Shown here piece by piece: positions 584 to 14,870 of a stretch of DNA of 32,000 nt (its first letter is position 1; each line of letters begins with the position of its first letter). This stretch comes from an uncultured Chloroflexia bacterium (GTDB taxonomy: Bacteria > Chloroflexota > Ktedonobacteria > Ktedonobacterales > JADMIN01). The notes beneath the pieces are model-generated. The model did not search any database. It had not been told where the DNA came from and saw nothing but the letters and a program-made list of their open reading frames with translations. The position numbers and the translations under genes were made by a program. Location of the stretch: positions 390,001-422,000 of the forward strand of contig CAVRAI010000007.1 in NCBI GenBank assembly GCA_963718915.1, given 5' to 3'.

Positions 584-929
584 GCGCCCCTGCGTCTTGC
601 TCGCATTTTCGCGGCTATAATCGTAGGATTGGCAGCAGTGGCGGGCGCCGGAGCGGTCAGTACACTTCTTGGCTTGTCGTTTCTAATCGTGTTTGCGGTT
701 CGTGACTTACATCGGCCGCTCTAGGATCGACGGCACGCACGCTCCGGCAATGAAACAACATCTGGCATATGAAGCCGCGCCTTTTTGCTATTGGACGAAT
801 CCTCACCGGAATTAGCGCCTGCTATCAACGCTCCCGCCTTCCGACGTGGTACAACAGCCTCATAGGGAAACAACGAACCTGTAGCCACGACCATCCCTGA
901 GCGGGCAGCAGACTGGAGCGTAACACAGC

Positions 930-1997
930 ATGAGCACACCATTGATGGCTGGCATCAGCGCCAGAGTTGTCGAGACGCCGCGCCTGCGTACCTACGCGCT
1001 GACGGCGGGTGATGAGAGCGGCGCGCCCGTTGTCTTCGTGCACGGCAACGTCTCGTCGGCGCGCTTCTTCGAGGAGACGATGCTGGCGATGCCGCCGGGC
1101 TACTGGTCGGTCGCGCCTGATCTGCGCGGCTTTGGCGAGAGCGAGACGAAGCCGGTGGACGCCTCGCGTGGCCTGCGCGACTTCTCCGATGATCTGCGCG
1201 CATTCCTGGAGGCGCTCGGCCTGACGGGCGCGCGCAAGCCCCATCTGCTCGGCTGGTCGCTCGGCGGTGGTGTCGTCATGCAGTACGCGATTGACAATGC
1301 CGCCGACGTCGCCTCGATCACGATGATGGACCCCATGTCGCCGTTCGGCTTCGGCGGGACAAAGGACACGAATGGCGCACCCTGCTGGCCTGATGCGGCT
1401 GGCTCTGGCGGCGGCACCGCCAACCCCGACTACGTCAAGCGGCTGCGTGAGGGCGACCGTGGCGAGGAATCGCCCAACTCGCCGCGCAACGTGATGAACG
1501 CCTTCTACTTCAAGCCGCCGTTCCGGGTCGCGCCGGAGCGTGAAGATGTCTTCGTCGACGCGATGCTCCAGATGCAGGTGAGCGACCAGAACTATCCCGG
1601 CGATATGCAGACCTCCGAGAACTGGCCCGGCGTGCGTCCCGGCGCGACCGGCGTGAACAACGCCATCTCTGCCCGGCTCGACCTTAGCGCATTCAGCGCA
1701 ATCACGCCGCAGCCGCCGGTGCTCTGGATACGCGGCGCGGACGATCTCATCGTCTCAGACAGTTCCTTCCTGGACTTTGGCACGCTCGGCAAGCTTGGCT
1801 ACGTGCCCGGCTGGCCCGGCGACGACGTGTTCCCGTCGCAGCCGATGGTCGCGCAGATACGCGCTGTCCTCGACCGCTACGCCATTGGCGGTGGGCGTTA
1901 TACTGAGGTTGTGGTGGCCGACTGTGGTCACTCGCCGCATATCGAGAAGCCAGGGGAGTTCAGCACGGCGTTCCTCACGTTTCTGGCGGGTGCGTGA
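930..1997 (+). CDS. alpha/beta-fold hydrolase
   Basis: 355-aa ORF with 'VVFVHGN' (oxyanion region), the nucleophile elbow 'GWSLGG' (G-x-S-x-G) and a C-terminal 'DCGHSPHIEKP' catalytic-His region. Confidence 0.85.
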   Translation: MSTPLMAGISARVVETPRLRTYALTAGDESGAPVVFVHGNVSSARFFEETMLAMPPGYWSVAPDLRGFGESETKPVDASRGLRDFSDDLRAFLEALGLTGARKPHLLGWSLGGGVVMQYAIDNAADVASITMMDPMSPFGFGGTKDTNGAPCWPDAAGSGGGTANPDYVKRLREGDRGEESPNSPRNVMNAFYFKPPFRVAPEREDVFVDAMLQMQVSDQNYPGDMQTSENWPGVRPGATGVNNAISARLDLSAFSAITPQPPVLWIRGADDLIVSDSSFLDFGTLGKLGYVPGWPGDDVFPSQPMVAQIRAVLDRYAIGGGRYTEVVVADCGHSPHIEKPGEFSTAFLTFLAGA

Positions 1998-2087
1998 CCT
2001 GTCCGGCACCGTATATCCAAGGGTTCCCATGCCGCATGAACATACACGTTTATTCCGAACACCGCGTGTCGTGGCAGGCGAGGTAGA

Positions 2088-2158
2088 CCGTAGCGTGAAC
2101 GCTACGGCGAATGGGTCGAGCGACGCTGGGGGCAGGGAAATTCGCTGGCAGGCTCCGG
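2088..2158 (+). repeat. Structured intergenic element, copy 1 (7-bp-stem/TGAA-loop hairpin + GGCGAAT...ATTCGCT long-range stem)
   Basis: Hairpin CGTAGCG-TGAA-CGCTACG at 2089-2106. GGCGAAT at 2106-2112 pairs with ATTCGCT at 2140-2146 (G-T, i.e. G.U only on the + strand). Tail is GGCAGGCTCCGG. Near-identical to copy 2 at 3170-3246. Lies 143 nt upstream of the SDR start. Confidence 0.8.
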
Positions 2159-2301
2159 TTGGTTCACCCTAGCACGCTTTTCGGGGTATTTCTTAACGTT
2201 CATCATGCCGCGAAGGTGGTTCATTGCCGCACTCGCATGGTTTCCATTACTCCGGCCATTTATGGCCGAGGCAGACATCATCAACAAAAGGAGGGCGTGA
2301 G

Positions 2302-3072
2302 ATGGCCGCTCTTGAAGGAAGGGTAGCGCTGGTCACGGGTGCGGCGAGTGGCATCGGGCTGGCGATTGCGCAGGCGCTGGCCGCCGAGGGCGCGCGGGTG
2401 ACGCTGGCCGATCTGGACGCCGAGCGTGGCCAGGCGGAGGCGGCGAAGCTGACGGGCGCGCGATTCGTCTCCGCCGATTTGACGCAGGCCGAGGGATGTC
2501 GCCAGCTCGTCGAGGGTACCATCACCGCGTCGGGCAGGCTGGATATCCTGGTGAACAACGCTGGTGTTCAGCATGTCGCGCCAATCACCGAATTCCCGGA
2601 GGCGAAGTGGCGCCAGTTGATTGAGTTGATGCTCACCGCGCCGTTTCTGCTGACTCAGGCGGCGCTGCCGGGCATGAACGAGCGGCGCTGGGGGCGTATC
2701 CTCAACGTTGGCTCGGTGCATTCGCTACGGGCGTCGGCCTTCAAGTCGGCGTATGTCGCCGCCAAGCATGGTATCCTTGGTCTGACACGAGTCACCGCGC
2801 TGGAGGGGGCCGAATACGGCGTCACCTGTAACTGTCTCTGTCCGTCGTATGTGCGCACTGCGCTGGTGGAGAAGCAGATTGCCGATCAGGCGCGGATCCA
2901 CAACATCCCTGAGAGCGAGGTGGTCGAGAAGATCATGGTCGCCGAGGCGCCGATTCACCGGCTGCTAGAGCCATCCGAAGTAGCAGCCTACGCCACATTC
3001 CTCTGCTCCGATGCGGCCAGCGGGATTACCGGCAGCGCGGTCACGATTGACTGCGGCTGGACGGCGCACTAG
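2302..3072 (+). CDS. Short-chain dehydrogenase/reductase (3-hydroxybutyrate dehydrogenase-like)
   Basis: ATG at 2302 follows AAAGGAGGG; the longer ORF from 2224 has no RBS. Motifs: 'TGAASGIGLAIA' (TGxxxGxG), 'NNAG', catalytic 'S...YVAAKHG' (Y-x3-K). 256 aa. Confidence 0.9.
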   Translation: MAALEGRVALVTGAASGIGLAIAQALAAEGARVTLADLDAERGQAEAAKLTGARFVSADLTQAEGCRQLVEGTITASGRLDILVNNAGVQHVAPITEFPEAKWRQLIELMLTAPFLLTQAALPGMNERRWGRILNVGSVHSLRASAFKSAYVAAKHGILGLTRVTALEGAEYGVTCNCLCPSYVRTALVEKQIADQARIHNIPESEVVEKIMVAEAPIHRLLEPSEVAAYATFLCSDAASGITGSAVTIDCGWTAH

Positions 3073-3090
3073 CGGGTAATAGTCCAGCTT

Positions 3091-3108
3091 CGCGGCATGA
3101 ATGCCGCG
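3091..3108 (+). repeat. Stand-alone copy of the 7-bp-stem/TGAA-loop hairpin
   Basis: CGCGGCA-TGAA-TGCCGCG, a perfect stem 19 nt after the SDR stop. Same architecture and loop as the hairpins at 2089, 3171 and 11120, with stem positions changed in a compensatory way. Followed by GCTAATCCC (compare GCGAATGGG in the full elements). Confidence 0.6.
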
Positions 3109-3169
3109 GCTAATCCCATCCGTTCAGCGCCGTATTTTAAAGGTGATCGCGGGCGGTGGGGTGAGCAGG

Positions 3170-3246
3170 CCGTAGCGTGAACGCTACGGCGAATGGGCGA
3201 ACGCGATGGTGGGGCGGGAAAATTCGCCGGGGCCTTTAGGCTCCGG
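3170..3246 (+). repeat. Structured intergenic element, copy 2
   Basis: Hairpin CGTAGCG-TGAA-CGCTACG at 3171-3188. GGCGAAT 3188-3194 pairs with ATTCGCC 3222-3228. Tail is GGCCTTTAGGCTCCGG. Lies 97 nt upstream of the hydrolase start at 3344. Confidence 0.8.
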
Positions 3247-3343
3247 CAAGCATTCCTCAGACCGCTGCTGCAGGCCGGAGATGTTTCCGCGCTATTTTCT
3301 AAAACAGCATTATGTGGAATTTCAGAAAGTGGAGGGTCGGACG

Positions 3344-4264
3344 ATGCGTCTCTTTGGCAAGCGGGCATCACAGGTGGATGCCGGCGGTGGTTCCGTGGCC
3401 GCGACTTCTTCCGATGCTGTCGGCGCGCACGATCTGCGCCTCTCTGACGTGACCATTCACTACCAGAGCTGGGGTCAGCCATCCACCTCGGAGCGCGCGG
3501 TCGTCCTCATCCACGGGTTGACGGCCAGCTCCATGGAGTTCGCCGAGCTTGGGCCAGCGTTGGCCGCGCAGGGTTACTACGCCATCGCGCTCGATCTGCG
3601 CGGGCGCGGACTCAGCTCGAAGCCCGCCCATGGCTACAACGTCGCGTTTCACGCCGCCGACGCGCTGGCGCTCTGCGACGCGCTCAACCTCGACGCGGTC
3701 AACGTCGTCGGCCACTCGCTGGGCGCGGTCATCGGCATGTATATCACCGCCATCGCGCCGCAGCGGGTGCGCAAGCTGGTGCTGATTGACGCGGGCGGCA
3801 ACATTCCGCAGGATACCGCGCAGGCGATCTCCGCCTCAGTCTCGCGGCTGGGAACTGTCTATCCCTCGCTGGACGCTTTCCTTGGCCTGATGCGCCAGCT
3901 GCCGATGCTGCAATGGAACAACCTATGGGAGCAGTACTTCCGCTACGACGCCGACGTCCGCCCGGACGGCACGGTGACCTCGCACGTGCCGAAGGCTGCC
4001 ATCGAGGAGGAGTCGCTGGCGCTGGCGCTGACCCGTTCGGAGGCGTTGCCCGATCTGGTGAAATGTCCGACGCTGGTCGTCCGCGCGACGGTGGGGCTGC
4101 TCGGCCCAGACGCGGGCTTCATTCTGCCGCGCGATGAGGCGGCGCGCCTCTGCAGCGTCATCGCCGACTGCCGCCTGCTCGAAGTGCCCGACACCAACCA
4201 CTACACAGTCGTCATCGCCGACGCCACCGTCGCAGGCATCCAGGGCTTCCTGGCGGATGGGTAG
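3344..4264 (+). CDS. alpha/beta-fold hydrolase
   Basis: ATG at 3344 is preceded by GGAGGG. The longer ORF from 3206 runs through repeat copy 2 and is unlikely. Motifs: 'VVLIHGLTAS', nucleophile elbow 'GHSLGA', C-terminal 'PDTNHY' His region. 306 aa. Confidence 0.85.
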   Translation: MRLFGKRASQVDAGGGSVAATSSDAVGAHDLRLSDVTIHYQSWGQPSTSERAVVLIHGLTASSMEFAELGPALAAQGYYAIALDLRGRGLSSKPAHGYNVAFHAADALALCDALNLDAVNVVGHSLGAVIGMYITAIAPQRVRKLVLIDAGGNIPQDTAQAISASVSRLGTVYPSLDAFLGLMRQLPMLQWNNLWEQYFRYDADVRPDGTVTSHVPKAAIEEESLALALTRSEALPDLVKCPTLVVRATVGLLGPDAGFILPRDEAARLCSVIADCRLLEVPDTNHYTVVIADATVAGIQGFLADG

Positions 4265-4265
4265 A

Positions 4266-4307
4266 GTTGGCGCGAATGCGCAGGGTATGTGGAGCATCCG
4301 CGCCAAC
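4266..4307. terminator. Inverted repeat between convergent genes (possible bidirectional terminator)
   Basis: GTTGGCGCG (4266-4274) and CGCGCCAAC (4299-4307) form a 9-bp perfect stem with a 24-nt loop, filling the 50-bp gap between the stops at 4264 (+) and 4315 (-). No clear U-tract. Confidence 0.4.
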
Positions 4308-4314
4308 CTAATGG

Positions 4315-6489
4315 TCAAGAATAGCTGGAAGTACTTCGTATAACATCGGCTTGGATTTCAGCGTTCTCGGCTTCTGCCTTACGACCCATTAGTCTCAATG
4401 TGTCCGCTTTTGCATCCCATGCAATGGGATTGTTAGCGTCTATGGAGAGTCTCTGATCATAGGCAGCGAGAGCTTCTTTGTATCGTTTCATAGCCGTGAG
4501 CAGTTGGCCTTTCGATAGCCAGGTCATGTTATGTCTGGGATCAAGAGTTAGCACCTGGTCAAAGGCTGCTAACGCCTCCTCGTTACGGCCGAGGTAGCGC
4601 AATACCGACCCCTTATCGTCCCAGGTTCCCGCATGTTCGGGATCAAGAGTTAGTGCCTGGTCAAAAGCGGCTAATGCCTCTTCATAGCGCCGCAACGTCT
4701 GAAGCGTCCACCCCTTGTAACTCCAGGCAGCGGCCAATTGGCTATCAAGGATGAGCGCCTGATCGAAGGCAGTCAGTGCCGCTTCGTCTAATTTCAACTC
4801 CAGGAGTGCTATGCCATTGTTCAACCACGCTCTAGCATCCTTTGGGGCAAGTGCTACTGCCTGTTCATAGGCGGTCAGAGACTCCTCATACCGCCCCAAT
4901 TGTTTCAGCACTTTACCTTTACGTTGCCATACGTTCGAATCCTTTGGGGTAAGGGTGAGTATCTGATTATAGATGGCGAGCGCCTCTTCATATCGCTCTA
5001 ATCGCAAGAGGATTGTAGCTTTCAATCCCCATGCATCTACACTCCTGGCATTGATCGAAATCGCTTGTTCGCAGGCGGTGAGCGCCTCCTCATCTCGGTT
5101 TAACAAAACGAGCGCGGCCCCTTTGCCGGCCCAAAAAGAGTCGTTTTGAGGGCCGAGTGCGACTGCCTGATCCCAGGCTTCCAGTACTTCCTGGTGTCGC
5201 TCCAATTCGACGAGTGCGTCACCCTTACATATCCATGTCAGGGCATCGCGGGGATTAATGGCGAGTGATTGATTAAAGGCCGAAAGCGCCTCTTCTGGCA
5301 GCTTCTTGCCGACGAGCGCCATACCCTTGCTGAACCATGCGAACGCGTTATTCGGGTTGAGAGCGATCGCCCGATCAATAGCAGCCAGCGCTTCCTCCTC
5401 CCGGTCCAGCGTACTCAGTACCATCCCTCTGTTCACCCAGTCAGAGTCATCTTTGGGATCGAAGGTAAGAACCCGCTCACATAATGCATGCACCTCTTCG
5501 TCTGAGCGATCCAACCCTTCGAGCGCGAAGCTTTTGTGAGACAGCGCCAGGACAAAATTGGGGTCGAGACTGAGCGCCTGCTCACAGGCCGCCAGCATCT
5601 CCTCCCAATGCATCTGCCCCCGCTGCAATACAATCAGTTCAGTGAGCAATGTCAGTTGTGGTTCGGTTTCATCTATCGGGATATAGGTTTGGGCGCGCGC
5701 CAGCAGCTTCATGGCTTCCTCTATCCGCCGCAGCAGGATTAGCGCCTGGGCCTTGCCACGTATGGTAGGCACATCATATGGATCATCGGCTAGAGCGTTA
5801 TCGAGCGCAGCCAGCGCGGTGGCGCCGTCTTCAAGTTCAACGGCGGCCAGCCCCAGTTCGCGCCAGAGTTGCGGCGTCATCGCCTCTGGCGCTTCGTCCT
5901 GTAGAGTTCGCGCTCGTATGAGTACCTGCCGCCAGTCCTTGCGGCCAAACGCGGTATGTATCTCCTGCATCAGGCGCGCAACCAGGCGCTCTTTTGGCGT
6001 CCCTGACGCGGCGGAGGATGCTGGTGAGGGGGCTGTTATAGCGGCTGGCGTCACGCTCCCCGTTTCTGCTGAAATTGGGCCAGTGTAGCCCAGTTCGCGC
6101 AACAATGAGGTCAATCGCGCCTCGTAGGGCAGGTCGTCGCCAAAAGGTAGCGCTTGAATGAGTTGCCAGTCTGCGGGTGTCTGGCAGGTACGATACATCA
6201 GCGGCAGGAGGTGTTTGCCGAGCTTGACGTGCTGCCAGTAGGCGATGCCCATCTCACGCGGTACCCAGTCTGAGGCGAGCGCATCAGGCGAGAGTAACAC
6301 AAGAAACGTGCCGCGCGCAGTAATCTCGGCGACGATACGATTCCACCACTCGTCACCGCCATGAAGACCGCCGGAGACATCGTACCAGACGGCATCCTCG
6401 CCCAGGTGCGCGCGCAGATCGGCGACTAGGCGCTTGCCAAACGCATCATCTTTGCTGCTGTGGCTGAAGAACAAACGCACCTGCTCCAT
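4315..6489 (-). CDS. TIR domain - TPR repeat fusion protein
   Basis: 724-aa ORF with AAGGAGAG upstream of the ATG. The N-terminal ~125 aa, 'RLFFSHSSKDDAFGKRLVADL...AVWYD...FLVLLSPDALASDWVPREMGIA', fit the bacterial TIR pattern, including the S-x-W-x(3)-E glutamate (E79, codon 6253-6255). From about aa 190 to the C-terminus there are roughly 14-15 tandem 34-aa TPR units of the form 'W..KG.AL..L.R.EEAL.A.DQAL.L.P'. Confidence 0.9.
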   Translation of the reverse strand: MEQVRLFFSHSSKDDAFGKRLVADLRAHLGEDAVWYDVSGGLHGGDEWWNRIVAEITARGTFLVLLSPDALASDWVPREMGIAYWQHVKLGKHLLPLMYRTCQTPADWQLIQALPFGDDLPYEARLTSLLRELGYTGPISAETGSVTPAAITAPSPASSAASGTPKERLVARLMQEIHTAFGRKDWRQVLIRARTLQDEAPEAMTPQLWRELGLAAVELEDGATALAALDNALADDPYDVPTIRGKAQALILLRRIEEAMKLLARAQTYIPIDETEPQLTLLTELIVLQRGQMHWEEMLAACEQALSLDPNFVLALSHKSFALEGLDRSDEEVHALCERVLTFDPKDDSDWVNRGMVLSTLDREEEALAAIDRAIALNPNNAFAWFSKGMALVGKKLPEEALSAFNQSLAINPRDALTWICKGDALVELERHQEVLEAWDQAVALGPQNDSFWAGKGAALVLLNRDEEALTACEQAISINARSVDAWGLKATILLRLERYEEALAIYNQILTLTPKDSNVWQRKGKVLKQLGRYEESLTAYEQAVALAPKDARAWLNNGIALLELKLDEAALTAFDQALILDSQLAAAWSYKGWTLQTLRRYEEALAAFDQALTLDPEHAGTWDDKGSVLRYLGRNEEALAAFDQVLTLDPRHNMTWLSKGQLLTAMKRYKEALAAYDQRLSIDANNPIAWDAKADTLRLMGRKAEAENAEIQADVIRSTSSYS

Positions 6490-6552
6490 TGTCTGCTCTC
6501 CTTATTTTGTGCTTGACTGCACCGAAAGCGATGAACCAATGAATCTGACAGT

Positions 6553-6580
6553 ATTCTAGCACGGGCTGTATGGTTCGTCA
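6553..6580 (-). promoter_or_regulatory. Candidate sigma70-type promoter for the TIR-TPR gene
   Basis: On the minus strand: TGACGA (6575-6580), a 16-nt spacer, then TAGAAT (6553-6558), about 60 nt upstream of the ATG at 6489. Hexamer matching only. Confidence 0.3.
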
Positions 6581-6656
6581 CGGGGAAAGATGGTTCAAAA
6601 TCTATCGAGATGCGCGCGATGAGGGCGTCTGGGTATTCATGCCAGGCGAAGCCTTC

Positions 6657-8423
6657 CTATGCGGGTGAGATCAGCAGGTCGGAGAAGGTAATCGTGCCAT
6701 TACTGCCTCCAACGAAGACACCGACCTGACCGGATTGCGGCACGTCATCCCCAACATAGCTGCCGACATACTGCCCGTTGACGAAGAAGCTCAACCTGGA
6801 ACCTTGCATCAGCACTGCCAGCCGGTTCGTCGCGTCCAGCCCCTGATGAATCGCCGCTAAGCCGCCAAAGGAGCCTTCATAGCGCAGGTCTCTATAATTG
6901 GACTCTGGCCCGTCGCCTTGTTTGGGGCGGAGATTCAGATGCCACTCGCCGTTCGGCGTGATCGTGAAGGCCAGCGCTGTGTTGCTGCCCGAATTTGCGC
7001 GAAATAATATGCCCGCGTCGTTCAAGTCGAAGTCCACCTGCTGGCGCATCGTCACCTCAACCAGCCCATCATGCATCGTTTGGGGGATGAGGCTGCCAAC
7101 ATTACAGCAGGTATCGGACGTGAAGACATAGCCGCTGGGCGTAAAGCTAACGCCCTTTGCGGCATCCGCTGAGGTGAGCGTCCACTGGAGCGTATTCGCC
7201 GTCAGTGGATCGCTGATATGTGACGTTGCGGTCTCCAATTGCGTAAGTTGCCCCCCAAAATACCACTGTTGCGCAGATGGGATGAGAATGCCCCCAAGCA
7301 GCACAAGCACCGATAACGCAGCGGCACATATGGCGGCTGGCCAGCGTGGCAGTGCTGACTCCCCAAAATGCCACGCGCTGGCCGCGAGCAGTCTGGGACG
7401 CCGCCAGGGAGATAGTTCCGAGACTTCAGACGAGATATGGAGCGCGCCGGGATTCAGGTCGCGTAGCGGAAAGTTCACCCGCGCCTGGACGAGTTGAGCG
7501 AGTCGCTGCCCTGGGTCTTCAGCAAGCACATACGGTGGGTAGGTAAGCCAGAGCAGGCTTGTATGCAGTCCAATCACGGCGTAAACGATATTGGAGCGCG
7601 GGTTGCTCATCTGTACAGGATTCATGGCGAAGGCAAACCAGCCGCGCGCCTCCGACCAGGGCAGCGCGTGTTTGCCCCAATGCAGGCCATCCCCGCGCGC
7701 CTCAACCTGGATTGCGCGTACCTTGCGTGTGATCGAGACAAACCACAACCCGCTCTGGATAGGGAACAAAGCGACTAAGGCGTACATCTGCCATGGAAAG
7801 AAGTTCTGCGCTAACAGCGTTCGTTCCACGAAGAACAGCGCCACCCACATTGCGACAACGCCCACACCCAGGCACAGGTTGAATCCGTACGTGATCTGCT
7901 GAGTGCGCAGCAGTCTCGACTCGGGCGGCATCACCTTGAACGATGTGGCGGGTGTGTCCAGTGGTTGCGCTGCCTGGCCAGTGGGGAAAATCGCAATCGG
8001 CGGCGCGAGGCTATCGTCGCCTGCCAGCGCGCCCCAGCTCAGACTACGGATGCTCACCTGGCCGGGAGCGGATATTCCTGCTGGCGCTCGGCGCTCCTGA
8101 CGGCGAACATGCCAGATGCTCCCCAGGATGATGACTTGCACCAACATCGCGAGACCCGCGAGCATCCAGTAAAACATCCAGTCAATGAAGCCATTGCTGT
8201 ACCACAAGGTGATAAGGCTTACCAGCGCAATGATGGTATACACAATGATAATGTGCCATCTTGTCCCCCACGGGTCCATGGCGCGCTGGAGTACTCCTCG
8301 CTGTGGCGGCTCGGCGAGTTGCTGGAGACCGCCGACAAGCGCTTTACATACCTTATCGGACGGATAGAGCGGAAGGCCGGGAATATAGCCATACATATCT
8401 CGTTCTGGCGTCTGTATATTCAT
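6657..8423 (-). CDS. Multi-pass membrane protein with C-terminal extracytoplasmic ConA-like (LamG/DUF1080-like) jelly-roll domain
   Basis: 588-aa ORF. Hydrophobic helices at about aa 55-105 (2), about 185-235 (2) and about 365-385 (1). The C-terminal ~190 aa, 'DGLVEVTMRQ...AGILFRANSG..ALAFTITPNGEWHL...SFFVNGQYVG...GQVGVFVGGSNGTITFSDLLI', match the pattern of DUF1080/LamG-type lectin folds. The family assignment is by eye. Confidence 0.7.
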   Translation of the reverse strand: MNIQTPERDMYGYIPGLPLYPSDKVCKALVGGLQQLAEPPQRGVLQRAMDPWGTRWHIIIVYTIIALVSLITLWYSNGFIDWMFYWMLAGLAMLVQVIILGSIWHVRRQERRAPAGISAPGQVSIRSLSWGALAGDDSLAPPIAIFPTGQAAQPLDTPATSFKVMPPESRLLRTQQITYGFNLCLGVGVVAMWVALFFVERTLLAQNFFPWQMYALVALFPIQSGLWFVSITRKVRAIQVEARGDGLHWGKHALPWSEARGWFAFAMNPVQMSNPRSNIVYAVIGLHTSLLWLTYPPYVLAEDPGQRLAQLVQARVNFPLRDLNPGALHISSEVSELSPWRRPRLLAASAWHFGESALPRWPAAICAAALSVLVLLGGILIPSAQQWYFGGQLTQLETATSHISDPLTANTLQWTLTSADAAKGVSFTPSGYVFTSDTCCNVGSLIPQTMHDGLVEVTMRQQVDFDLNDAGILFRANSGSNTALAFTITPNGEWHLNLRPKQGDGPESNYRDLRYEGSFGGLAAIHQGLDATNRLAVLMQGSRLSFFVNGQYVGSYVGDDVPQSGQVGVFVGGSNGTITFSDLLISPA

Positions 8424-8718
8424 ATGTGCGCGATACCTCTCGCTGATACTGGCACAAACGCTTCCAGCGTGAAATGCGCTTCGTCTAGGCCGCTAAATGG
8501 CCAGCAATCGTCACGATTATACACCGCACGGCTACTGCGTCAATCATCGCGCGAAATCTCATCGGTCATATTGCCCGCACCGCTTCAGTATTTCTGCCGT
8601 CGTTATCCTCTCCCTTGGCATAGTCCGCTGGGTGTGGTAGAAACCAGGTGAGAGGTGTGCTCCATCGGAGGCGCGCACCGCCTGTATGCTATGCCTACCA
8701 CCCAAGGAGAACAATCCA

Positions 8719-9237
8719 ATGGACCACCTTCCAAGCATGAAGAGCGATCCCAATCAGGCGCTGGTTGTCTCGTTCCCCGATGAGAACAAAGCACAGGAAG
8801 TGCTGGAGACCCTGAAGCAGCTCAACGCCGCCCACGATGTCGCGCTCAGCAGCGCCGCCGTCATCCGTCGCGATCCAGACGGCAAGATCAACGTCCACGA
8901 GACACGCGACTTCAATGCGAAGCAGGGCGCCGTCGCGGGCGCGCTGGCGGGCGGGCTGATCGGCCTGTTGCGCGGCAATGCGCTGGCGGGCGCGGCCATC
9001 GGCACGGCGGCGGGTTTTGGCGCCAGCAAGATCCTCGACCTGGGCCTCCCCGATGACTTCCTGAAGCAGATCGGCGAGCAGTTGACGCCGGGCAGTTCGG
9101 CCCTCGTCGCCATCGTCACCTTCGAGAACGTCGCCGAGGCGATGAAGGTGCTCGACCAGTACGCGGGCGCGAAGATTCTGCATAGTGCGCTCTCGCCCGA
9201 TGTCGCTCAGCAGCTCTCCGCCGCCATCGAAGACTGA
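8719..9237 (+). CDS. DUF1269-family membrane protein
   Basis: ATG at 8719 is preceded by AAGGAGA. 'ALVVSFPDENKAQEVLETLKQL...VALSSAAVIRRDPDGKINVHE' followed by Gly/Ala-rich TM segments 'GAVAGALAGGLIGLL' and a second alpha/beta half is the typical DUF1269 layout. Confidence 0.8.
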   Translation: MDHLPSMKSDPNQALVVSFPDENKAQEVLETLKQLNAAHDVALSSAAVIRRDPDGKINVHETRDFNAKQGAVAGALAGGLIGLLRGNALAGAAIGTAAGFGASKILDLGLPDDFLKQIGEQLTPGSSALVAIVTFENVAEAMKVLDQYAGAKILHSALSPDVAQQLSAAIED

Positions 9238-9259
9238 CCTCTAGATCGCGTTTCGTCTG

Positions 9260-9287
9260 GCCCCTTCCGGTGTGGAAGGGGCTTTTT
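9260..9287 (+). terminator. Rho-independent terminator
   Basis: GCCCCTTCC (9260-9268), loop GGTGT, GGAAGGGGC (9274-9282), then TTTTT (9283-9287). Lies 23 nt after the DUF1269 stop. Confidence 0.85.
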
Positions 9288-9403
9288 CGTGCCATGTGAA
9301 ACTATAAGCCCCCATTAAGGCCATCTTAAGCGCACACTAAGCTTGCTGATACATAATAGCCTCCATATGGTGGAGCAATCTTCGCAGAGTGGGGTGGCGC
9401 AGC

Positions 9404-11093
9404 ATGGATGATTCCTCCCGTCCGCAGTCGCGAGCCAGCGACGCGGGGCGTCTGGCGGATGCCACAGATACGATTCCGCGAGCCGGAAGCAGCTGGCAGT
9501 TGCCAGAGGTTCAGCCGCCGACCGCCGGTATCACCGATGACCGGACGATACCCATCTCGTCGCCGGGCAAGGCGTCGCGGCGTGGGGTGAGTCGCCGCAA
9601 AGCGCTGATTGGCGCGGGCGCCGGAGCCGTTGGGCTGGGGCTGCTCGGCACGGGCGCCGCCGTATTTCTAGCGCGCCAGCAGTCGGCCAGCCCCGCCACG
9701 CTCTATGCGGACGACGCCGCGAAGATAGGCCACCTGTTGCGCCGGGCGGGCTTCGGCTCGTCGCCCGCCGACCTTCAGCAGTACCTGAGCCTGGGCGTCT
9801 CTGGCGCCATCGAGAAGCTGCTCAACTTCTCTGGCGTCTCCAACACGGCGCTCGATGCCCGGCTCAACTCACTCAACCTCAACTTCACCAACCGGCAGGA
9901 TCTGATTCGCTGGGTGCTGCTGCGCATGATCTACAGCCCGCGCCCATTCGAGGAGAAGCTGACGCTCTTCTGGCATGGCGTGCTGACCAGCAGCTTCACC
10001 AAGATTGGCGGCACCACGCACCTGCCGTTCATGATCCAGCAGAACCAGTTGCTGCGCGCGAAGGGGCTGGGGCAATTCGACGACCTGATGCACGCGGTCA
10101 CGATTGATCCAGCCATGCTCTACTGGCTGGATGGACGGCTTAGTTCCGGCCACTCGCCCAACGAGAACTACTCGCGCGAGTTGATGGAACTCTTCACGAT
10201 GGGTATCGGCAACTATACCCAGGACGATGTGCATCAGGGGGCGCTGGCGCTGACCGGCTGGGTCGTCCGGGCGGATGGGGCGCACTACGTTCCGGCGCGC
10301 CACTATAACGAGCTCGGTCACCTTCCTGGGGCATACTGGCCCGATGACCGTAGACGACGTCATCAGGATCGTCTGCGCGCACCCGGCCACCGGCACGCAT
10401 ATCGCTCGGCGCATGTGGAGCTTCTTCGTCTACGACAACCCCAGCCCGCAGGACTTGAAGCCGCTCTCCGACGCCTATTACCAGCACGATCACAGCATCG
10501 CGGCGATGGTGCGCGCCATGTTCTCCTCGCCCGCGTTCTTCAGCGCGCAGGCCTACCGGGCGCGGGTCAAGAGTCCGCTGGAGTTCGTCGTCGGCGCCAT
10601 CCGCGCGCTGGGGCTAGAGACGAACGCCACCGGGCTGGCGACCGTCCTCAACGCGATGGGCCAACTACCACTCGATCCGCCCAATGTGGCGGGCTGGCCA
10701 GGAGATGGCGCGAGTGGGGCATGGATGTCCACGCAGGCCTGGGTCACGCGCATCAACCTGACCGACTTGCTGGTCTCGATTGCGGCGGGCGCGCACCCGA
10801 AGGGCGGCCCGAAGATCAACCTGACGACCCCGGGAGGGACGTCGGCCATCCAGCAGGCGATCACACAGCAGAAGATTGCCAGCGCCGATGCTCTGGTGAG
10901 CTACTACGTCGCCATGCTGCTGGACAACACGCTCGATCCCAGCCGCCGCGCCGTGCTGGCCGATGCGCTGACGAACAGTCCGATTCAGGGCGGCGCGACG
11001 TTCACGCTGGCGGGCGGCAAGAAGGTCTCCGCCGCCGCGACGGCTGAGATGCTCTACCTGCTGATGTCGCTGCCTGAGTACCAGATGAATTGA
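9404..11093 (+). pseudogene. DUF1800-family protein (Tat signal), interrupted by a +1 frameshift near 10316
   Basis: The N-terminal part is in the 9389 frame ('SRRKALIGAGAGAVGLG' twin-Arg signal; 'IGHLLRRAGFG', 'FWHGVLTS', 'YSRELMELFTMG'). After 'RHYNE' that frame turns into Arg-rich nonsense. The homologous C-terminal part ('VTFLGHTGP...VCAHPATGTHIARRMWSFFV...VKSPLEFVV...LPEYQMN') continues in the 10275 frame. Removing one G from the GG at 10316-10317 restores 'HYNELVTFLG'. Confidence 0.8.
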
Positions 11094-11118
11094 GGGGGAA
11101 GTCCTTCGTGGGCGCCGT

Positions 11119-11190
11119 CCGCAGCATAAATGCTGCGGCGAATTGGCGGCGAATGGGCAGGGAAATTCGCCGTGGCCTTCAGGCTACGGC
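11119..11190 (+). repeat. Structured intergenic element, copy 3
   Basis: Hairpin CGCAGCA-TAAA-TGCTGCG at 11120-11137 has a stem fully compensated relative to copies 1 and 2. GGCGAAT is duplicated (11137-11143, 11148-11154) and pairs with ATTCGCC at 11165-11171. Tail is GGCCTTCAGGCTACGG. Lies between DUF1800 and DUF1501, 51 nt before the ATG at 11242. Confidence 0.75.
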
Positions 11191-11241
11191 GGGCCAAAGT
11201 ACAACAGTCGAGCGCGATTGATTCATGAGAGGTGGTGCGTC

Positions 11242-12570
11242 ATGCCCAACACGCCCAACACGCCTGGCCAGCCATGCAAACCGTTCAATGCGCCATTCAG
11301 CCGGAGAGCGATGATTCGCGATGGACTGCTCGCGGTTAGCGCGGGCATGGTCATGCCGACGATCTTCTCGCGCGCCGTCCGGGCGGCCTCCAACGCGGCG
11401 CATGAGGGCGCGCACTGGGCGCAGGCGGCGCAGGGACGCACGCTGATTGTGGTGCAGATGGCGGGCGGCAACGACGGCCTGAATACGCTCATCCCCTACA
11501 CCGATGGCGCGTACTATTCCGCACGGCCAACGCTGGCCATCGCCCAGGCGGACGCCCTCCATCTCAACGACCGGCTCGGGCTGCATCCCGCGCTCAAGGC
11601 GCTGATGCCGCTGTGGCAGCAGGGACGCCTGGCCGCCATCGAAGGTGTCGGCTATCCAAACCCCAACCTGTCGCACTTCGCCGCGATGGACATCTGGCAG
11701 ACGCTCGATCTGAACGGCCAGGGCGGGCAGGGCTGGCTCGGCAAGTACGTCGCCGGGCTGGTGGATAAAGATGGCCACCCATTCCAGTCGCTCGCCGTCG
11801 GCACCTCGCTGCCGGTCGCGCTGAACGCGATCAACGCCGATGTGCCCGTGGTCGCCTCGCCGTCTACCTATCGGCTGCAGCCCGACCCGGAGGGCGCCAG
11901 CGCGGCCAAAAATGGCACGGCCGCCAATGCGCGGGTCGAGACGCTGCTGAAGCTCTACAATACCTATCCACGTTCGGCGCCGTATGCCGCGCTGCTCGAT
12001 GCGACGGCCCAGGCGGCGGTGGATGGATCGCGCCAACTCGATACCGCCGTCGCCAGCTACGTCCCGAAGGCGCAGTATCCGAACACGAACTTCGCCAAGG
12101 GCTTGCAGGTGCTGGCGGAGGTGATCGTCCAGGGGCTGGGGCTGCGCGTTGGCTATGTGACGCTGGGCGGCTTCGATACCCATGGCGAGCAGGCGAATAC
12201 CCAGGCGGGGCTGCTGCAACAACTCGCCGAGGGGCTGGCGGCGTTCTATAGCGACTTACAGGGACACAATGCCGCCGATAATGTCGTGGTGATGACCTGG
12301 TCGGAGTTCGGGCGGCGCGTGGAGGAGAACGCCAGCGCGGGCACCGACCACGGGACGGCGGCGCCCCTCTTCGTGCTGGGCAACGCGGTGCAGGGCGGCG
12401 TCTATGGCGAGCCGCCCGACCTCACGAAGCTGGACCCCAACGGCAACCTCGTCTTCACGACGGACTTCCGCTCGATCTACGCCACTGTGCTCGACCGCTG
12501 GCTCGGCGCGCCCGCCAGCGCGGTGCTCGGCGGCAACTATGGCGAGCAGGCGTTCCTGCCGCCCGCATGA
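11242..12570 (+). CDS. DUF1501-family protein (sulfatase-like fold, Tat signal)
   Basis: ATG at 11242 is preceded by GAGAGGTGG. The longer ORF from 11143 runs through repeat copy 3. Motifs: twin-Arg signal 'FSRRAMIRDGLLAVSAG', 'LIVVQMAGGNDGLNT', 'GGFDTHG', 'SEFGRRV.EN...GTDHG'. It forms the usual DUF1800-DUF1501 gene pair. Confidence 0.88.
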   Translation: MPNTPNTPGQPCKPFNAPFSRRAMIRDGLLAVSAGMVMPTIFSRAVRAASNAAHEGAHWAQAAQGRTLIVVQMAGGNDGLNTLIPYTDGAYYSARPTLAIAQADALHLNDRLGLHPALKALMPLWQQGRLAAIEGVGYPNPNLSHFAAMDIWQTLDLNGQGGQGWLGKYVAGLVDKDGHPFQSLAVGTSLPVALNAINADVPVVASPSTYRLQPDPEGASAAKNGTAANARVETLLKLYNTYPRSAPYAALLDATAQAAVDGSRQLDTAVASYVPKAQYPNTNFAKGLQVLAEVIVQGLGLRVGYVTLGGFDTHGEQANTQAGLLQQLAEGLAAFYSDLQGHNAADNVVVMTWSEFGRRVEENASAGTDHGTAAPLFVLGNAVQGGVYGEPPDLTKLDPNGNLVFTTDFRSIYATVLDRWLGAPASAVLGGNYGEQAFLPPA

Positions 12571-12577
12571 CCTGATT

Positions 12578-12597
12578 CCCTCTCCCACAGGAGAGGG
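12578..12597. terminator. Hairpin after DUF1501 (no U-tract)
   Basis: CCCTCTCC (12578-12585), loop CACA, GGAGAGGG (12590-12597), beginning 8 nt after the stop. No T-run follows, so a terminator function is uncertain. Confidence 0.35.
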
Positions 12598-12892
12598 GGA
12601 GCCAGAGGCAGTCCTGCAAAAGCTATCAAAAGCCATAACAGGAAAATGCGAACACAAAAGCGTCTGCCCCGCGCATCGCGGCAGGGGTGACACACCACAC
12701 AGCCGTTATTGCCGACATTTTCAGTCGGTTGCGGGAGGCAGACATATTTTCTATTTAGCTGGCCAGAGAGACGTGTACGGCGCACTCTGGCCTCAGCCGG
12801 GACAAGACCGCGCTGGTTCAGCATAGGTGGCCGCGTCCGTCGATTTCCCGCGAAGAGGACTCGTGCGGATTTACTGGCCGGAAACGCTGGAT

Positions 12893-13016
12893 CATCCGCC
12901 GCACGCGCCAGACGGAACCCTTCGTTGTTGTTGAAGTTGTCCCGCCTGTTGTCGTTACGGTAGGCCGCGCGCGTATTCTGGGAATCGTTGTTCCATGAAC
13001 CGCCACGCAGCACTGA
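12893..13016 (-). pseudogene. Decayed 3'-terminal fragment of an FGE-sulfatase-domain gene
   Basis: Aligns without gaps, at a 360-bp offset, to 13253-13376 (the 3' end of the TIR-FGE gene); most positions are identical by eye. It encodes 'VLRGGSWNNDSQNTRAAYRNDNRRDNFNNNEGFRLARAADD' versus 'VLRGGSWDVGSQYTRAAYRDGSRWVSFDDSGGFRLARAAAG'. The rest of the FGE domain is absent upstream and the native stop is lost. Confidence 0.75.
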
Positions 13017-13166
13017 GATCGGCCTGCCCCACGGCATACGCGCAAGAGGAGCGACCTCCCGCACGTCTTCCATACTGGCTACGACGGGCGACAACAGTAG
13101 GCGGATGCACGACCAGGACTTTGGCGTAGAACGCTTCACGCCGTTGCAGTTCCCAGGCAACGCCGC

Positions 13167-13194
13167 TTGATTGCCTATAGCTTGCATTTATAAT
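13167..13194 (+). promoter_or_regulatory. AT-rich promoter-like island (hexamers on both strands)
   Basis: Plus strand: TTGATT (13167-13172), 16 nt, TATAAT (13189-13194). Minus strand: TTGTCT (13211-13216), 18 nt, TATAAA (13187-13192). This is the only strongly AT-rich patch between the FGE fragment and the TIR-FGE stop. Hexamer matching only. Confidence 0.3.
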
Positions 13195-13241
13195 GCATAT
13201 CGATGCACCCAGACAAGAAACAAGAAATCAGAACCAGAGGA

Positions 13242-14540
13242 TTATGCTGAACCAGCCGCCGCACGCGCCAGACGGAACCCCCCGCTGTCGTCGAAGCTGA
13301 CCCACCTGCTGCCGTCACGGTAGGCCGCGCGCGTATACTGGGAACCGACGTCCCACGAACCGCCACGCAGCACTCGATTATCAGTGGAATCTGGATTCTC
13401 TCGTCCGTCGTTTTTACGGTAGGGATAGGGCTGGAGGAGGCTGCTCGTCCACTCCCAGACGTTGCCTGCCATATCCTGGACATGATACGGGCTTTCGCCG
13501 GTGGGATAGCGACCGACGGGCGTAGTCCTCCCGATGCCGCTCTCGCTGGTGTTGCAACGTGCCTTGTCGAACGTGTCGCCCCAGGGATAGATGCGGCCAT
13601 CCGTCCCGCGCGCCGCCTTCTCCCATTCTGCCTCGGTCGGCAGCCGCCATGGCTGGCTCGTAAGCTTGGCCAGCCAGGCGCAATATGCGACTGTGTCATT
13701 CCACGAGACACAGACCACAGGATGGTCAGGGTGCGCCTGCTGCGTCGCCCAGTCTACATCATCCCAGCTTTTTTCTGGCTCTCTCACGGCTTTGGCACGG
13801 ACGGCGCAGGCGTATTCAGCCACGGTGACGGGGTGCTGGCCGATGGCGAAGGCGTCCACCTCAACTGGATATTGTGGCGTCTCGTCGTCATCGGCATCTT
13901 TGTCGCGGCTCTTGTCGCTGCCCATGGTGAAGACGCCTGCCGACACCGGACAAATCGGCGGCAGGATGCACTCAACCCCGCCGATGGTATAGCCGCGAAA
14001 GCCAAGGTCATAGTAGGGTTTGGGTGTCAGATGGTGCGCGGGCGCGCTGTTGGCGGGGACGGGCGCCGGGCCGAGTGGCGGCAGGGTATCAGGCGGTGGA
14101 GGAGGTGGTAGCGGATCGCCACCATGCGCGTCGAGGATCACCCGATACGCCCGCATGGCGGCGGCTTGCGGTGGAAATGCCGCTCCGCCCGGCTGCTCGA
14201 TCCGCTTGTAGCCCTCCAGAAGAAGCGGCACATCGCAGGGAATCGCGGTGACGAATTGAATCGTCTCGATGCTCCCTTTGCGCCGTAGCGCCCGCGCCGC
14301 GTCTATTTCGTCGTTGACCCACCCAGAGTTCACCGCTGCCGGGCTGAGAATGGCAATGAAATGCTGACACTTGCGCAGTTCAGCTTCAATCACCTGCCGC
14401 AACGCTCCCCAGCCGAGATTATGCTCGTCGTACCAGACGGCGTTCTCATTGCCCAGCGCCTCGCGGAGCGCCCCCACGAACGCGCGACAGAAGTCATTAT
14501 CGGTGTGGCTGTGGCTGACGAAAACCTGTGGTGTGGCCAT
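13242..14540 (-). CDS. TIR domain - FGE-sulfatase (SUMF1/formylglycine-generating-enzyme-like) domain fusion protein
   Basis: ATG at 14540 is preceded by GAGGGA; the ORF-track start at 14708 adds 56 non-homologous residues. TIR: 'VFVSHSHTDNDFCRAFVGALR...AVWYD...FIAILSPAAVNSGWVNDEIDAA' (E78, codon 14307-14309). Poly-Pro linker: 'PLPPPPPPDTLPPLGPAPVP'. FGE domain hallmarks: 'FTMGSD', 'HPVVCVSWNDTVAYCAWL', 'RLPTEAEWEKAARG', 'AGNVWEWT', 'VLRGGSW', 'GFRLARA'. 432 aa. Confidence 0.9.
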   Translation of the reverse strand: MATPQVFVSHSHTDNDFCRAFVGALREALGNENAVWYDEHNLGWGALRQVIEAELRKCQHFIAILSPAAVNSGWVNDEIDAARALRRKGSIETIQFVTAIPCDVPLLLEGYKRIEQPGGAAFPPQAAAMRAYRVILDAHGGDPLPPPPPPDTLPPLGPAPVPANSAPAHHLTPKPYYDLGFRGYTIGGVECILPPICPVSAGVFTMGSDKSRDKDADDDETPQYPVEVDAFAIGQHPVTVAEYACAVRAKAVREPEKSWDDVDWATQQAHPDHPVVCVSWNDTVAYCAWLAKLTSQPWRLPTEAEWEKAARGTDGRIYPWGDTFDKARCNTSESGIGRTTPVGRYPTGESPYHVQDMAGNVWEWTSSLLQPYPYRKNDGRENPDSTDNRVLRGGSWDVGSQYTRAAYRDGSRWVSFDDSGGFRLARAAAGSA

Positions 14541-14780
14541 ATATCCCTCAACAGCAATCAGCATGAGCGCTACCACGAGCAGTTGGCGCGATGGCTTGCA
14601 CGCACAGTGTAACCCATCTATGGCGCGATGGGAAGAGCGCGGAATGGTTGATAAGCGTTGTGCGCGCCCGTCGCACGATACCGCAACGGACGCGATGAGC
14701 CGCGGCATTCATGCTGCGATGCTGGAGCATCTCCAACCTCGCCCGCGCCAAAAACACCCGCTACATATCTCAACCTTCAC

Positions 14781-14870
14781 ATCCGAGTCACGTAACCGCC
14801 GCACGGGCGAACGCGCCAGCATGACCGGGCCGAGCAGCTTGCCCACGCAGACGACGAAGAGCGTCATGCA
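14781..14870 (-). pseudogene. Decayed 3'-terminal fragment of an MFS transporter gene
   Basis: Aligns without gaps, at a 1240-bp offset, to 16021-16110 (the 3' end of the MFS gene). It encodes 'TLFVVCVGKLLGPVMLARSPVRRLRDSDV' versus 'TLFVVCAGKLLGPVLLARSPVRRLRDPDV'. No upstream MFS sequence precedes it. Confidence 0.75.

Follow-up and report, generated by a model that had tools for sequence, protein, structure and literature searches.

Paired REP-like hairpins between genes of a Ktedonobacterales bacterium: a probable lineage-specific family of dispersed palindromic DNA repeats

The hairpin elements described here are very probably members of a lineage-specific repeat family of Ktedonobacterales (Chloroflexota) whose copies are palindromic, non-coding and dispersed. 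The family is a new one of a well-known kind (REP/REPIN/MITE) and is not a gene-specific RNA regulator, since a hairpin repeat that is scattered through Ktedonobacterales and varies between close relatives is an ordinary bacterial repeat. The window (the whole 32,000-nt stretch of DNA analysed) holds full copies at 2088-2158, 3170-3246 and 11119-11190, far more than chance would give, and a hairpin-only copy; an earlier note on this DNA had placed all four there, which is borne out by pattern counts and by a covariance model. GGCGAAT-N15-40-ATTCGC is matched 5 times where 0.05 matches are expected, and the hairpin pattern 10 times (0.68 expected). Scanned across the entire window without filters, the covariance model of the unit returns five intact units (2073-2107, 3155-3189 and 11104-11138 on the plus strand, 3227-3261 and 11170-11204 on the minus strand), two weaker singlet hairpins (3091-3108 plus and 14701-14718 minus) and no further matches. 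The copies lie 26-98 nt beyond the preceding stop codons, at 1997, 3072 and 11093; downstream start codons follow at 144, 98 and 52 nt from copies 1, 2 and 3. Coordinates of the features are collected in Table 1.

Table 1. Family features in the window and their coordinates
Feature	Position	Strand	Description
Copy 1, long form	2037..2203	+	Palindromic, ends TGAAC...GTTCA(T), central hairpin doublet; 82% identity over 188 nt to L057/L042
Copy 1, unit A hairpin CCGTAGCG-TGAA-CGCTACGG	2088..2107	+	Covariance-model match 2073-2107, 39.9 bits
Copy 1, decayed inverted unit ATTCGCTGG (gap) CAGGCTCCGG	2140..2158	-	Alignment: one arm lost by a 6-nt deletion; unit missed by the covariance model
Copy 1, direct repeat CATGCCGCA	2028..2036		Partner CATGCCGCG at 2204-2212, 8/9 identical; possible target-site duplication
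Retained 3' arm of S1 singlet hairpin TCATGCCGCGAAG	2203..2215		Abuts right end of copy 1; inverted-repeat pair
S1 singlet	3083..3124	+	Hairpin CGCGGCA-TGAA-TGCCGCG at 3091-3108, then CTAAT tail; 11 nt past SDR stop codon
Copy 2, core doublet	3156..3260	+	89% identity to L036 over 122 nt
Copy 2, unit A hairpin CCGTAGCG-TGAA-CGCTACGG	3170..3189	+	Covariance-model match 3155-3189, 53.2 bits
Copy 2, inverted unit B hairpin	3227..3246	-	Minus strand CCGGAGCC-TAAA-GGCCCCGG; covariance-model match 3227-3261 minus, 37 bits
Copy 3, doublet	11104..11204	+	Between DUF1800 and DUF1501; unit A CCGCAGCA-TAAA-TGCTGCGG at 11119-11138; inverted unit B at 11170-11189
Second S1 singlet TCGCAGCATGAATGCCGCGG-CTCAT	14685..14726	-	88% complementary to 3083-3124 over 42 nt

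The repeat unit is about 40 nt long and consists of a 15-nt flank, an 8-bp hairpin with a GC-rich stem and a TGAA or TAAA loop (CCGNNGCN-TRAA-NGCNNCGG), and CGAAT; the outer ~15 nt beyond each hairpin, gtggggtgagcagg or its complement, also belong to the unit. The earlier note had described a 7-bp stem (module 1), which is actually 8 bp (CCGTAGCG/CGCTACGG), and a pairing of GGCGAAT with ATTCGC further downstream (module 2) followed by a plain tail. This tail, GCCGTGGCCTTCAGGCTACGG, is in fact an 8-bp hairpin and the reverse complement of module 1 plus GGCGAAT, a relation that the note missed; module 2 is therefore merely the inner part of a large inverted repeat, and each copy, having a second, inverted hairpin as its tail, is an inverted doublet of one unit with a spacer of 7-38 nt. 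All 18 strictly defined adjacent pairs have the arrangement unit(+)/unit(-), with spacers of 9-34 nt and neither tandem nor divergent pairs among them, and two different hairpins are paired in each of the 18. The usual element is made of two different REP-like units in inverted orientation; such a REP doublet has the architecture of a REPIN or a MITE. Some copies carry an extra ~50 nt of inverted sequence per side, with the ends TGATGAAC...GTTCATCA; element length is 85-190 nt, and the element is an imperfect palindrome throughout, is non-coding and has terminal inverted repeats in the long form. Copy 1 matches other copies across 2036-2214; a systematic search for long-form copies with both ends gave too few complete examples to generalise on flanks. 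The GTAG of the commonest unit (CCGTAGCG) is paired with CTAC inside the stem, and there is no unpaired GTAG/CGTC head; B-type units have GGAG in place of GTAG, and their hairpin is CCGGGGCC-TTCA-GGCTCCGG. The S1 hairpins form a separate singlet subfamily, TCGCGGCATGAATGCCGCGG-CTAAT, of which the hairpin-only copy at 3091-3108 is a member.

In an alignment of 74 units (from the window, metagenome contigs and the Chloroflexota loci among the matches listed), 94% of stem cells are paired. Stem position 4 is occupied by UA in 39 units, GC in 22 and CG in 3, and position 8 by GC in 31, CG in 21 and AU in 14; the covariation score was reached by none of 500 shuffles, although the counts are not independent events, because the copies have common ancestors and the search pattern itself fixed five of the eight pairs. 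Compensatory stem changes, which the earlier note had reported for the window, are real across the family at these two positions, and the strong covariation of positions 4 and 8 shows that hairpin formation is maintained; the hairpins are kept either by selection or by the copying mechanism. Folding is equally good on both strands, with z about -3.5 to -4 on each. A.C/G.T asymmetry makes one DNA strand the better folder. In unit B of copy 2, position 5 is an A.C mismatch when read on the minus strand, and the plus strand has G.T. The G-T wobble of copy 1 had been taken to argue for a plus-strand RNA; it lies in the decayed arm with the 6-nt deletion, and the general argument from G.U pairs on the sense strand fails across loci, where the mismatch-bearing hairpin stands 5 vs 4 relative to transcription direction, without orientation bias (n=9). 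Rfam 15 was searched and contains no match to the whole window at gathering score, nor any to 1950-3400 at E<=1. A promoter and terminator scan of 1900-3450 gave results at chance level only, including a lone weak terminator site at 3276-3289 on the outer flank of copy 2; no T-run directly follows the unit hairpins, which are followed by CGAATGGG or flank sequence instead.

None of the three window copies is present at the orthologous site in close relatives (~90% nucleotide identity, or 89-96% at the amino acid level); such elements are acquired and lost between genes over short evolutionary time. The relative L076, which is ~90% identical and syntenic, lacks copies 1 and 2, and no such element stands upstream of the SDR, hydrolase and DUF1501 orthologues in L076, L071, L075, L078 and L081. 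At the copy 1 site L076 has only an intact S1 hairpin, CGCGGCATTCATGCCGCG, without the whole 2037..2203 segment, and this empty site contains a single TCATGCCGCG; copy 1 occupies the site of the S1 hairpin that is intact in L076. Copy 1 is flanked by CATGCCGC(A/G), an 8/9 direct repeat, and the pairing of CATGCCGCA with CATGCCGCG across it suggests a possible target-site duplication. The S1 singlet that follows the SDR stop codon has a conserved counterpart at the orthologous position in L076; the segment missing from L076 at copy 2 runs from about 3133 to about 3320 (limits approximate), and copy 2 has no clear target repeat, its ends being obscured by ~10% divergence from L076. The copy 3 site is empty in L081 (96% amino acid identity) and L078 (89%), in which the gap between DUF1800 and DUF1501 is only 13 nt, and it is filled by a variant doublet in L079 and by a different element in L077. 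Two stem pairs differ between the window copy and the L079 copy, both with compensation on the two arms. In L077 a perfect 12-nt direct repeat, AGATGAATTGAG (12/12), surrounds a 164-nt hairpin doublet, and degenerate versions of AGATGAATTGAG flank window copy 3 and the L079 element. Flanks are inverted rather than direct in several copies, including L057 and L055; inverted hairpin arms border the copies in L057/L042 and L055, and in a few cases elements are seen inside or beside pre-existing hairpins. Related contigs, about 77 kb in all, contain a single doublet.

A pattern scan in which stem positions 4, 5 and 8 were left free returned at least 40 loci; among the matches listed, 22 come from six Chloroflexota MAGs, with 14 loci in CAVPDP01 and others in Ktedonobacteria/Ktedonobacterales and Thermomicrobiales MAGs. 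Most of the Chloroflexota MAG loci among the matches listed have a partner unit beside them, and the listed matches outside this phylum stand alone and are due to chance. In a second scan the element turned up on 29 metagenome contigs from soil or rhizosphere, and many of these end at it or close by; viral contigs scanned with the unit pattern gave no matches. Near-identical copies are present at unrelated loci and in different MAGs, and units are intergenic in nearly all cases (by crude ORF calls). Flanking genes are unidirectional at 19 sites, convergent at 9 and divergent at 3, in a small sample with crude gene calls; two of the convergent sites were confirmed by Pfam, namely L016 (an AMP-binding gene, two doublets, then NurA) and L012 (MFS and LepA). 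The neighbours are unrelated genes, and the element occurs in both orientations relative to transcription. The sense position upstream of start codons that the earlier note had emphasised is correct as to the distances in the window; as a property of the element it does not extend beyond the window, with convergent sites elsewhere, and the 3/3 sense orientation could be a local effect.

To our knowledge, REP/REPIN systems have been studied almost entirely in Proteobacteria; Bertels and Rainey reportedly described REPs and their inverted doublets (REPINs) in 2011. The present family resembles them as a short, GC-rich, imperfect palindrome with many dispersed intergenic copies, mostly as inverted dimers of two different hairpins with spacers of tens of nucleotides. 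Also shared are compensatory changes in the stems, the repeated occurrence of G-T pairs, a bias towards spacers between unidirectional or convergent genes, remnant-like singlets, and GTAG in the commonest unit. The family differs in its host order, Ktedonobacterales, in that GTAG is base-paired in the stem where REPs have it in an unpaired head, in that no RAYT is linked to it in the sampled sequence, and in the 9-12 nt direct repeats of some copies. Among the papers searched, none names both Ktedonobacter and "repetitive extragenic palindromic". The GTAG REP families were treated by Di Nocera et al. 2013 (PMC3733652), who describe REP doublets, heterodimers, G-T pairs and a convergent/unidirectional bias, and also REPs of the Chloroflexi member Thermomicrobium roseum that are inserted in small GC-rich palindromes of the form CCGSSCC(n3-4)GGSSCGG. 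This T. roseum family, GTAG-23, belongs to the same phylum, its host palindrome resembles the B-type hairpin in form and its nesting is like that of copy 1; however, it is reported to form large blocks at a few loci (PMC3733652), whereas the present family is dispersed; the two are compared here by description. MITEs such as Correia of Neisseria, ERIC/IRU, RUP and Nezha share with the family a non-coding length of 100-200 nt, terminal inverted repeats, many copies, strain-variable presence, co-transcription with neighbours and possible target-site duplications; they differ in that the interior here consists of REP-like hairpin units and not of insertion-sequence ends, that no matching autonomous insertion sequence was identified, and that duplications are present at few sites only. 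The insertion of IS1397 and ISKpn1 in the loops of enterobacterial REPs (BIMEs) has a parallel in locus L059, where the two arms of a family hairpin enclose a DDE_Tnp_1 insertion sequence, and in the longer family members that also lie inside hairpins. IS1397 is of the IS3 family; the transposase family here is a different one, in a single example.

The copies might be taken for strand-specific structured RNA, that is, a cis-regulatory leader, a riboswitch-like element or a small RNA for the SDR, hydrolase and DUF1501 genes, as three of three window copies are in sense, 52-144 nt upstream of start codons, the stems covary and copies 2 and 3 have plus-strand G.T pairs. This reading is extremely improbable and already contradicted by the present data: close relatives have the same genes but no element at the orthologous sites, it is found by unrelated genes and between convergent genes, orientation bias is absent, folding is no better on the plus than on the minus strand, Rfam has no match, and as a whole the element is palindromic DNA. 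By the refuting conditions that the earlier note itself set, namely terminal inverted repeats, target-site duplications (apparent here at a few sites) and a lack of strand bias, the regulatory-RNA reading fails and REP/MITE stands. The strand-specific RNA or cis-regulatory role offered by the earlier note is likewise at odds with folding on both strands, with the absent orientation bias and with the copies absent in relatives, and the evidence points in the direction of the two other roles it named, a protein-binding REP-like repeat and a miniature mobile element; dedicated regulation of the SDR, hydrolase or DUF1501 genes is probably not a function of these copies. It is also quite improbable that the hairpins are immobile and host-maintained, as 3'-end mRNA stabilisers, bidirectional terminators or gyrase/nucleoid-protein sites, and spread by recombination or duplication only. 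Their placement after stop codons in unidirectional and convergent spacers and the S1 singlet conserved in L076 so close to the SDR stop codon agree with host maintenance, and enterobacterial REPs do have roles in 3'-end mRNA stabilisation and attenuation; however, no T-run follows the hairpins, near-identical copies stand at unrelated loci of different MAGs, and gain and loss are rapid, with target duplications. By analogy with the enterobacterial REPs, 3'-end mRNA stabilisation or attenuation may still occur; effects on neighbours would be a by-product of co-transcription between genes, which would at most be transcribed together with the hairpins, with mRNA stability perhaps affected.

As a REP/MITE family, the elements are probably non-autonomous and moved in trans by an enzyme encoded elsewhere. 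Neither a RAYT nor a cognate transposase was found in the window plus ~0.48 Mb of loci, which is a small fraction of any genome, and a 120-sequence RayT profile, purely enterobacterial and thus a weak test, gave nothing below E=4.9 against six-frame ORFs of the loci; the earlier note had suggested looking for a RAYT. Pfam detects no transposase in the other window ORFs. The tblastn search with E. coli RayT gave one weak match, at 8926-9201, which corresponds to the DUF1269 gene read in antisense. The 9-12 nt direct repeats at three sites make a transposase with a staggered cut (DDE-type) the somewhat likelier mover; the alternative would be a HUH enzyme of the RAYT type that acts on hairpins in single-stranded DNA. 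The DDE-type possibility in its full form, a MITE that derives by deletion from a DDE-type insertion sequence or parasitises one and moves by cut-and-paste or copying with a 9-12 bp staggered target cut, can be held only tentatively. It accords with the duplication at the copy 3 site, which is perfect over 12 nt in L077 and degenerate in the window and L079, with the 8/9 direct repeat around copy 1, with element size and the terminal inverted repeats TGATGAAC...GTTCATCA, and with the DDE_Tnp_1 insertion sequence located exactly between family hairpin arms in L059. This insertion sequence was rejected as the autonomous partner, as its ends (ACGTTTGGTGTGA) differ from the element ends, sharing only AACGTT with them, and it occurs once; moreover, several copies have inverted rather than direct flanks, the L077 element with the clean duplication is of a different hairpin family, and the duplication shared at the copy 3 site may reflect one old event. 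Rather doubtful is a strict REPIN, in which a single-copy RAYT (HUH Y1 transposase) recognises single-stranded hairpins and inserts them without target duplication, preferably into other hairpin loops. Y1 transposition makes no 9-12 nt direct repeats, and those at copy 1, L077 and L079 stand against it together with the GTAG paired in the stem and the lack of a RAYT in the sequence sampled (a weak test). The inverted REP doublets with existing singlets, the GTAG within the commonest stem, the nesting in hairpins, the better folding of one DNA strand through A.C/G.T asymmetry and the precedent of Chloroflexi GTAG REPs inside small palindromes, as described in PMC3733652, all fit a strict REPIN. 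An unlikely extension of the REP/MITE reading is a self-nesting Ktedonobacterales superfamily of REPIN-like doublets, which would transpose by staggered-cut, non-RAYT means with 9-12 nt duplications and home to ATGAAT-type loops of hairpins, including their own, so that the interior is replaced in place while the edges persist; if true, it would explain three different doublets in the same duplicated target between DUF1800 and DUF1501 in three relatives.

The family is well populated in a large-genome Chloroflexota order. With its filled and empty sites among close relatives, its nesting in hairpins and its apparent target duplications, it would lend itself well to studying whether REP-like doublets depend on RAYTs in every case. 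In the annotation of Ktedonobacterales genomes and MAGs, the hairpins should be masked as repeats and not labelled as regulatory RNAs; such repeats also account for the broken contigs in assemblies of Ktedonobacterales from soil metagenomes.

The three full copies of the repeat proposed in the earlier note were confirmed in the window and align with one another over ~100 nt. The motif GGCGAAT-N15-40-ATTCGC has five matches in the window against 0.05 expected (at three loci, two of which are readable on both strands), and the hairpin pattern has 10 against 0.68 expected. When all 32 kb were searched with a covariance model of this unit, filters off, the output was five intact units, all within copies 1-3, a weaker singlet hairpin on each strand (plus, 3091-3108; minus, 14701-14718) and no further match. 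The hairpin scan also matched the minus strand at 11169-11188, inside what had been described as a 3' tail, which is thus a second hairpin; with ATTCGCC it reads on the minus strand as CCGTAGCC-TGAA-GGCCACGG-CGAAT, the same unit as the first hairpin with its GGCGAAT. Every copy is thus built from one unit, present twice in inverted orientation as a doublet. The GGCGAAT/ATTCGC pairing, previously taken as a separate long-range stem, is only the inner portion of the doublet's inverted repeat.

The unit extends ~15 nt outside each hairpin, with the flank consensus GTGGGGTGAGCAGG. All 18 of 18 strictly defined pairs have the form unit(+)/unit(-), and the hairpins joined in each are unlike, typically CCGTAGCG... 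and CCGGAGCC...; REP dimers have been described as showing the same heterodimer habit (PMC3733652). Copy 1 is decayed, with 6 nt deleted from its second hairpin; the G-T pair reported for this copy exists, but it sits in the damaged arm. A longer form of copy 1 (window 2036-2214; ends TGATGAAC...GTTCATCA) has 82% identity to two metagenome contigs. Microsatellite-like expansion of the inner motif can occur: at ~4150-4240 of L007, another locus with the repeat, at least five tandem copies of the octamer GGGCGAAT directly follow the GGCGAAT tail of a unit.

Pairing holds in 94% of the stem cells of 68 distinct units; stem position 4 is U-A in 39, G-C in 22 and C-G in 3, position 8 is G-C in 31, C-G in 21 and A-U in 14, and position 5 is A-U in 40 or A.C in 27. 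Pairing drops to 25-47% in slid registers. The compensatory stem changes first described from the window are borne out by the paired-arm variation at positions 4 and 8, and the observed covariation was reached by 0 of 500 shuffles, where the counts are non-independent events, five of the eight pairs being fixed by the search pattern and the copies sharing descent. The stem pattern supports selection for the hairpin to form, whether as DNA or as RNA; it would equally be left by copying in which one arm is corrected against the other.

The hairpin-only copy at 3091 is a member of a sister singlet family, S1 (TCGCGGCATGAATGCCGCGG-CTAAT), which is related to the doublet units and has 13 matches in the window and the compared loci with up to two mismatches allowed. 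S1 copies often lie just 3' of stop codons; the one that follows the SDR stop codon is kept at the orthologous site in the window and L076, a locus syntenic with window 844-10757 at ~90% identity.

Locations of the doublet copies and S1 repeats
Feature	Sequence	Position	Strand	Remark
Copy 1	window	2088-2158		
Copy 2	window	3170-3246		
Copy 3	window	11119-11190		
S1, 3' arm only	window	2203-2215		adjoins right end of copy 1
S1 repeat	window	3083-3124		
S1 repeat	window	14685-14726	minus	S1 pattern match
S1 repeat	L076	8288-8307		
S1 repeat	L076	9210-9229		

Where the window has ~205 nt at the site of copy 1, L076 has 13 nt, which make up the rest of an S1 hairpin (CGCGGCATTCATGCCGCG) directly 3' of the hydrolase stop codon; of this hairpin the window keeps just the 3' arm. 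The ~190 nt containing copy 2 are missing from L076. The copy 3 site, between the DUF1800 stop and the DUF1501 start, is 13 nt long in the relatives L081 (DUF1501 96% identical) and L078 (89%); L079 (90%) carries there a doublet with CCGTAGCG-TAAA-CGCTACGG, and the window has CCGCAGCA-TAAA-TGCTGCGG. L077 (96%; 658-845) has at this site a different hairpin doublet (arms TCTCGGCC-ATCAAT-GGCCGGAG), whose 26-nt inverted arms are 85% complementary and which is bounded by a perfect 12-nt direct repeat, AGATGAATTGAG, that is single in empty sites. Doublet density is one in ~77 kb of these relatives versus three in the window's first 11 kb. From these site differences, the doublet elements undergo rapid gain, loss and replacement.

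Judged by the source names attached to near-identical proteins, the window's organism belongs to the Ktedonobacterales. A genome-collection scan with stem positions 4, 5 and 8 left free matched at least 40 loci. Among the matches listed, 22 come from six Chloroflexota MAGs (CAVPDP01 supplies 14; the others are Ktedonobacteria/Ktedonobacterales and Thermomicrobiales MAGs), and most of these 22 carry an inverted partner unit; those listed from other phyla are lone units, and are chance matches. A metagenome scan found the element in 29 short soil/rhizosphere contigs, many of which terminate at or close to it. The repeats share with REP/REPIN elements a short palindrome, many extragenic copies, inverted doublets and a context bias, but not the unpaired GTAG head; with MITEs they share size and terminal inverted repeats. 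The doublets behave like both kinds, and the repeats are a new family in an under-studied order; the family would be of somewhat more note should self-nesting and the apparent target duplications turn out to be widespread.

Gene contexts, as called by a crude gene caller, are unidirectional (19), convergent (9) or divergent (3); the Pfam-confirmed convergent cases, between AMP-binding enzyme and NurA genes in L016 and between MFS transporter and LepA genes in L012, place the element upstream of no gene. At stem position 5, B-type units carry A.C on one strand, which reads as G.T on the opposite one, and in unidirectional contexts the sense strand is the G.U strand four times and the A.C strand five times. 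In copies 2 and 3 either strand gives a fold far better than those of shuffles (z -3.5 to -4.1), which does not hold for decayed copy 1. The Rfam search that had been suggested found no match in the window, even at E<=1 (a run covering 1950-3400), and the repeats belong to no Rfam family; a promoter and terminator scan of the copy 1-2 region found no T-run 3' of the hairpins and no promoter-like site. These five counts (context, strand, folding, known families and signals) argue against a gene-specific RNA, and the strand-specific, cis-regulatory RNA once proposed is not supported; the element does not qualify as a conserved leader RNA or as an intrinsic terminator. The earlier note's alternative, a REP-like or miniature mobile element, is supported. 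By analogy with enterobacterial REPs, 3' stabilisation of or other effects on adjoining transcripts are plausible.

The elements are palindromic doublets that are dispersed, polymorphic between relatives and maintained in their stems; in a few cases they are associated with pre-existing hairpins. They are presumably non-autonomous and transposed in trans, and we lean slightly towards a duplication-making mechanism over a RAYT. A DDE-type transposase making staggered cuts is a tentative candidate for moving the doublets: the direct repeat in L077 matches at 12/12 positions, L079 and the window have degenerate direct repeats at that site, and an 8/9 direct repeat surrounds copy 1; however, the sole insertion sequence seen, in the locus L059, differs in its ends and occurs only once in the sample. 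This insertion sequence (197-1350; 336-aa DDE_Tnp_1 transposase; terminal inverted repeats ACGTTTGGTGTGA) exactly separates the two arms of a family hairpin (CCGGGGCC / IS / GGCCCCGG); on each side there follow a spacer and another family unit, these two flanking units being mutually inverted. A RAYT-type enzyme is the competing, slightly less favoured candidate: the REPIN-like architecture, the nesting in hairpins and a precedent in T. roseum (PMC3733652) fit it, and the direct repeats do not fit Y1 chemistry; a narrow profile found no RAYT-like ORF in the window or ~0.48 Mb of loci.

Other features of the window were also observed. The DUF1800 gene (9389-11093) is split over two reading frames with a junction near 10317-10321; against the intact L078 protein, the match runs in frame 2 as far as 10321 and resumes in frame 3 at 10317, with a 1-nt gap versus L076, and the split reflects a sequencing error or a pseudogene with a frameshift. 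Two minus-strand genes encode TIR-domain proteins, one with TPR repeats (4315-6489; absent from the syntenic relatives L076 and L071) and one with an FGE-sulfatase domain (13242-14708); they may be variable defence-type cargo. Window 9235-16031 is missing from L071. A 94-nt direct repeat (87% identity) occurs at 14779-14872 and 16019-16112; the latter copy is the 3' end of an MFS transporter gene (minus strand, 15997-17478), and the former accordingly resembles a duplicated piece of a gene, lying where the variable segment borders its surroundings. A second direct repeat, of 129 nt (84% identity; 12886-13014 and 13246-13374, spaced by 360 nt), extends over the 12537-13187 ORF and the beginning of the region of the TIR/FGE-sulfatase gene, and a 9-nt tandem repeat, TCATCTGGC, is present in ~5 copies at 26508-26557 within a ResIII/helicase gene (25274-26662, minus strand).
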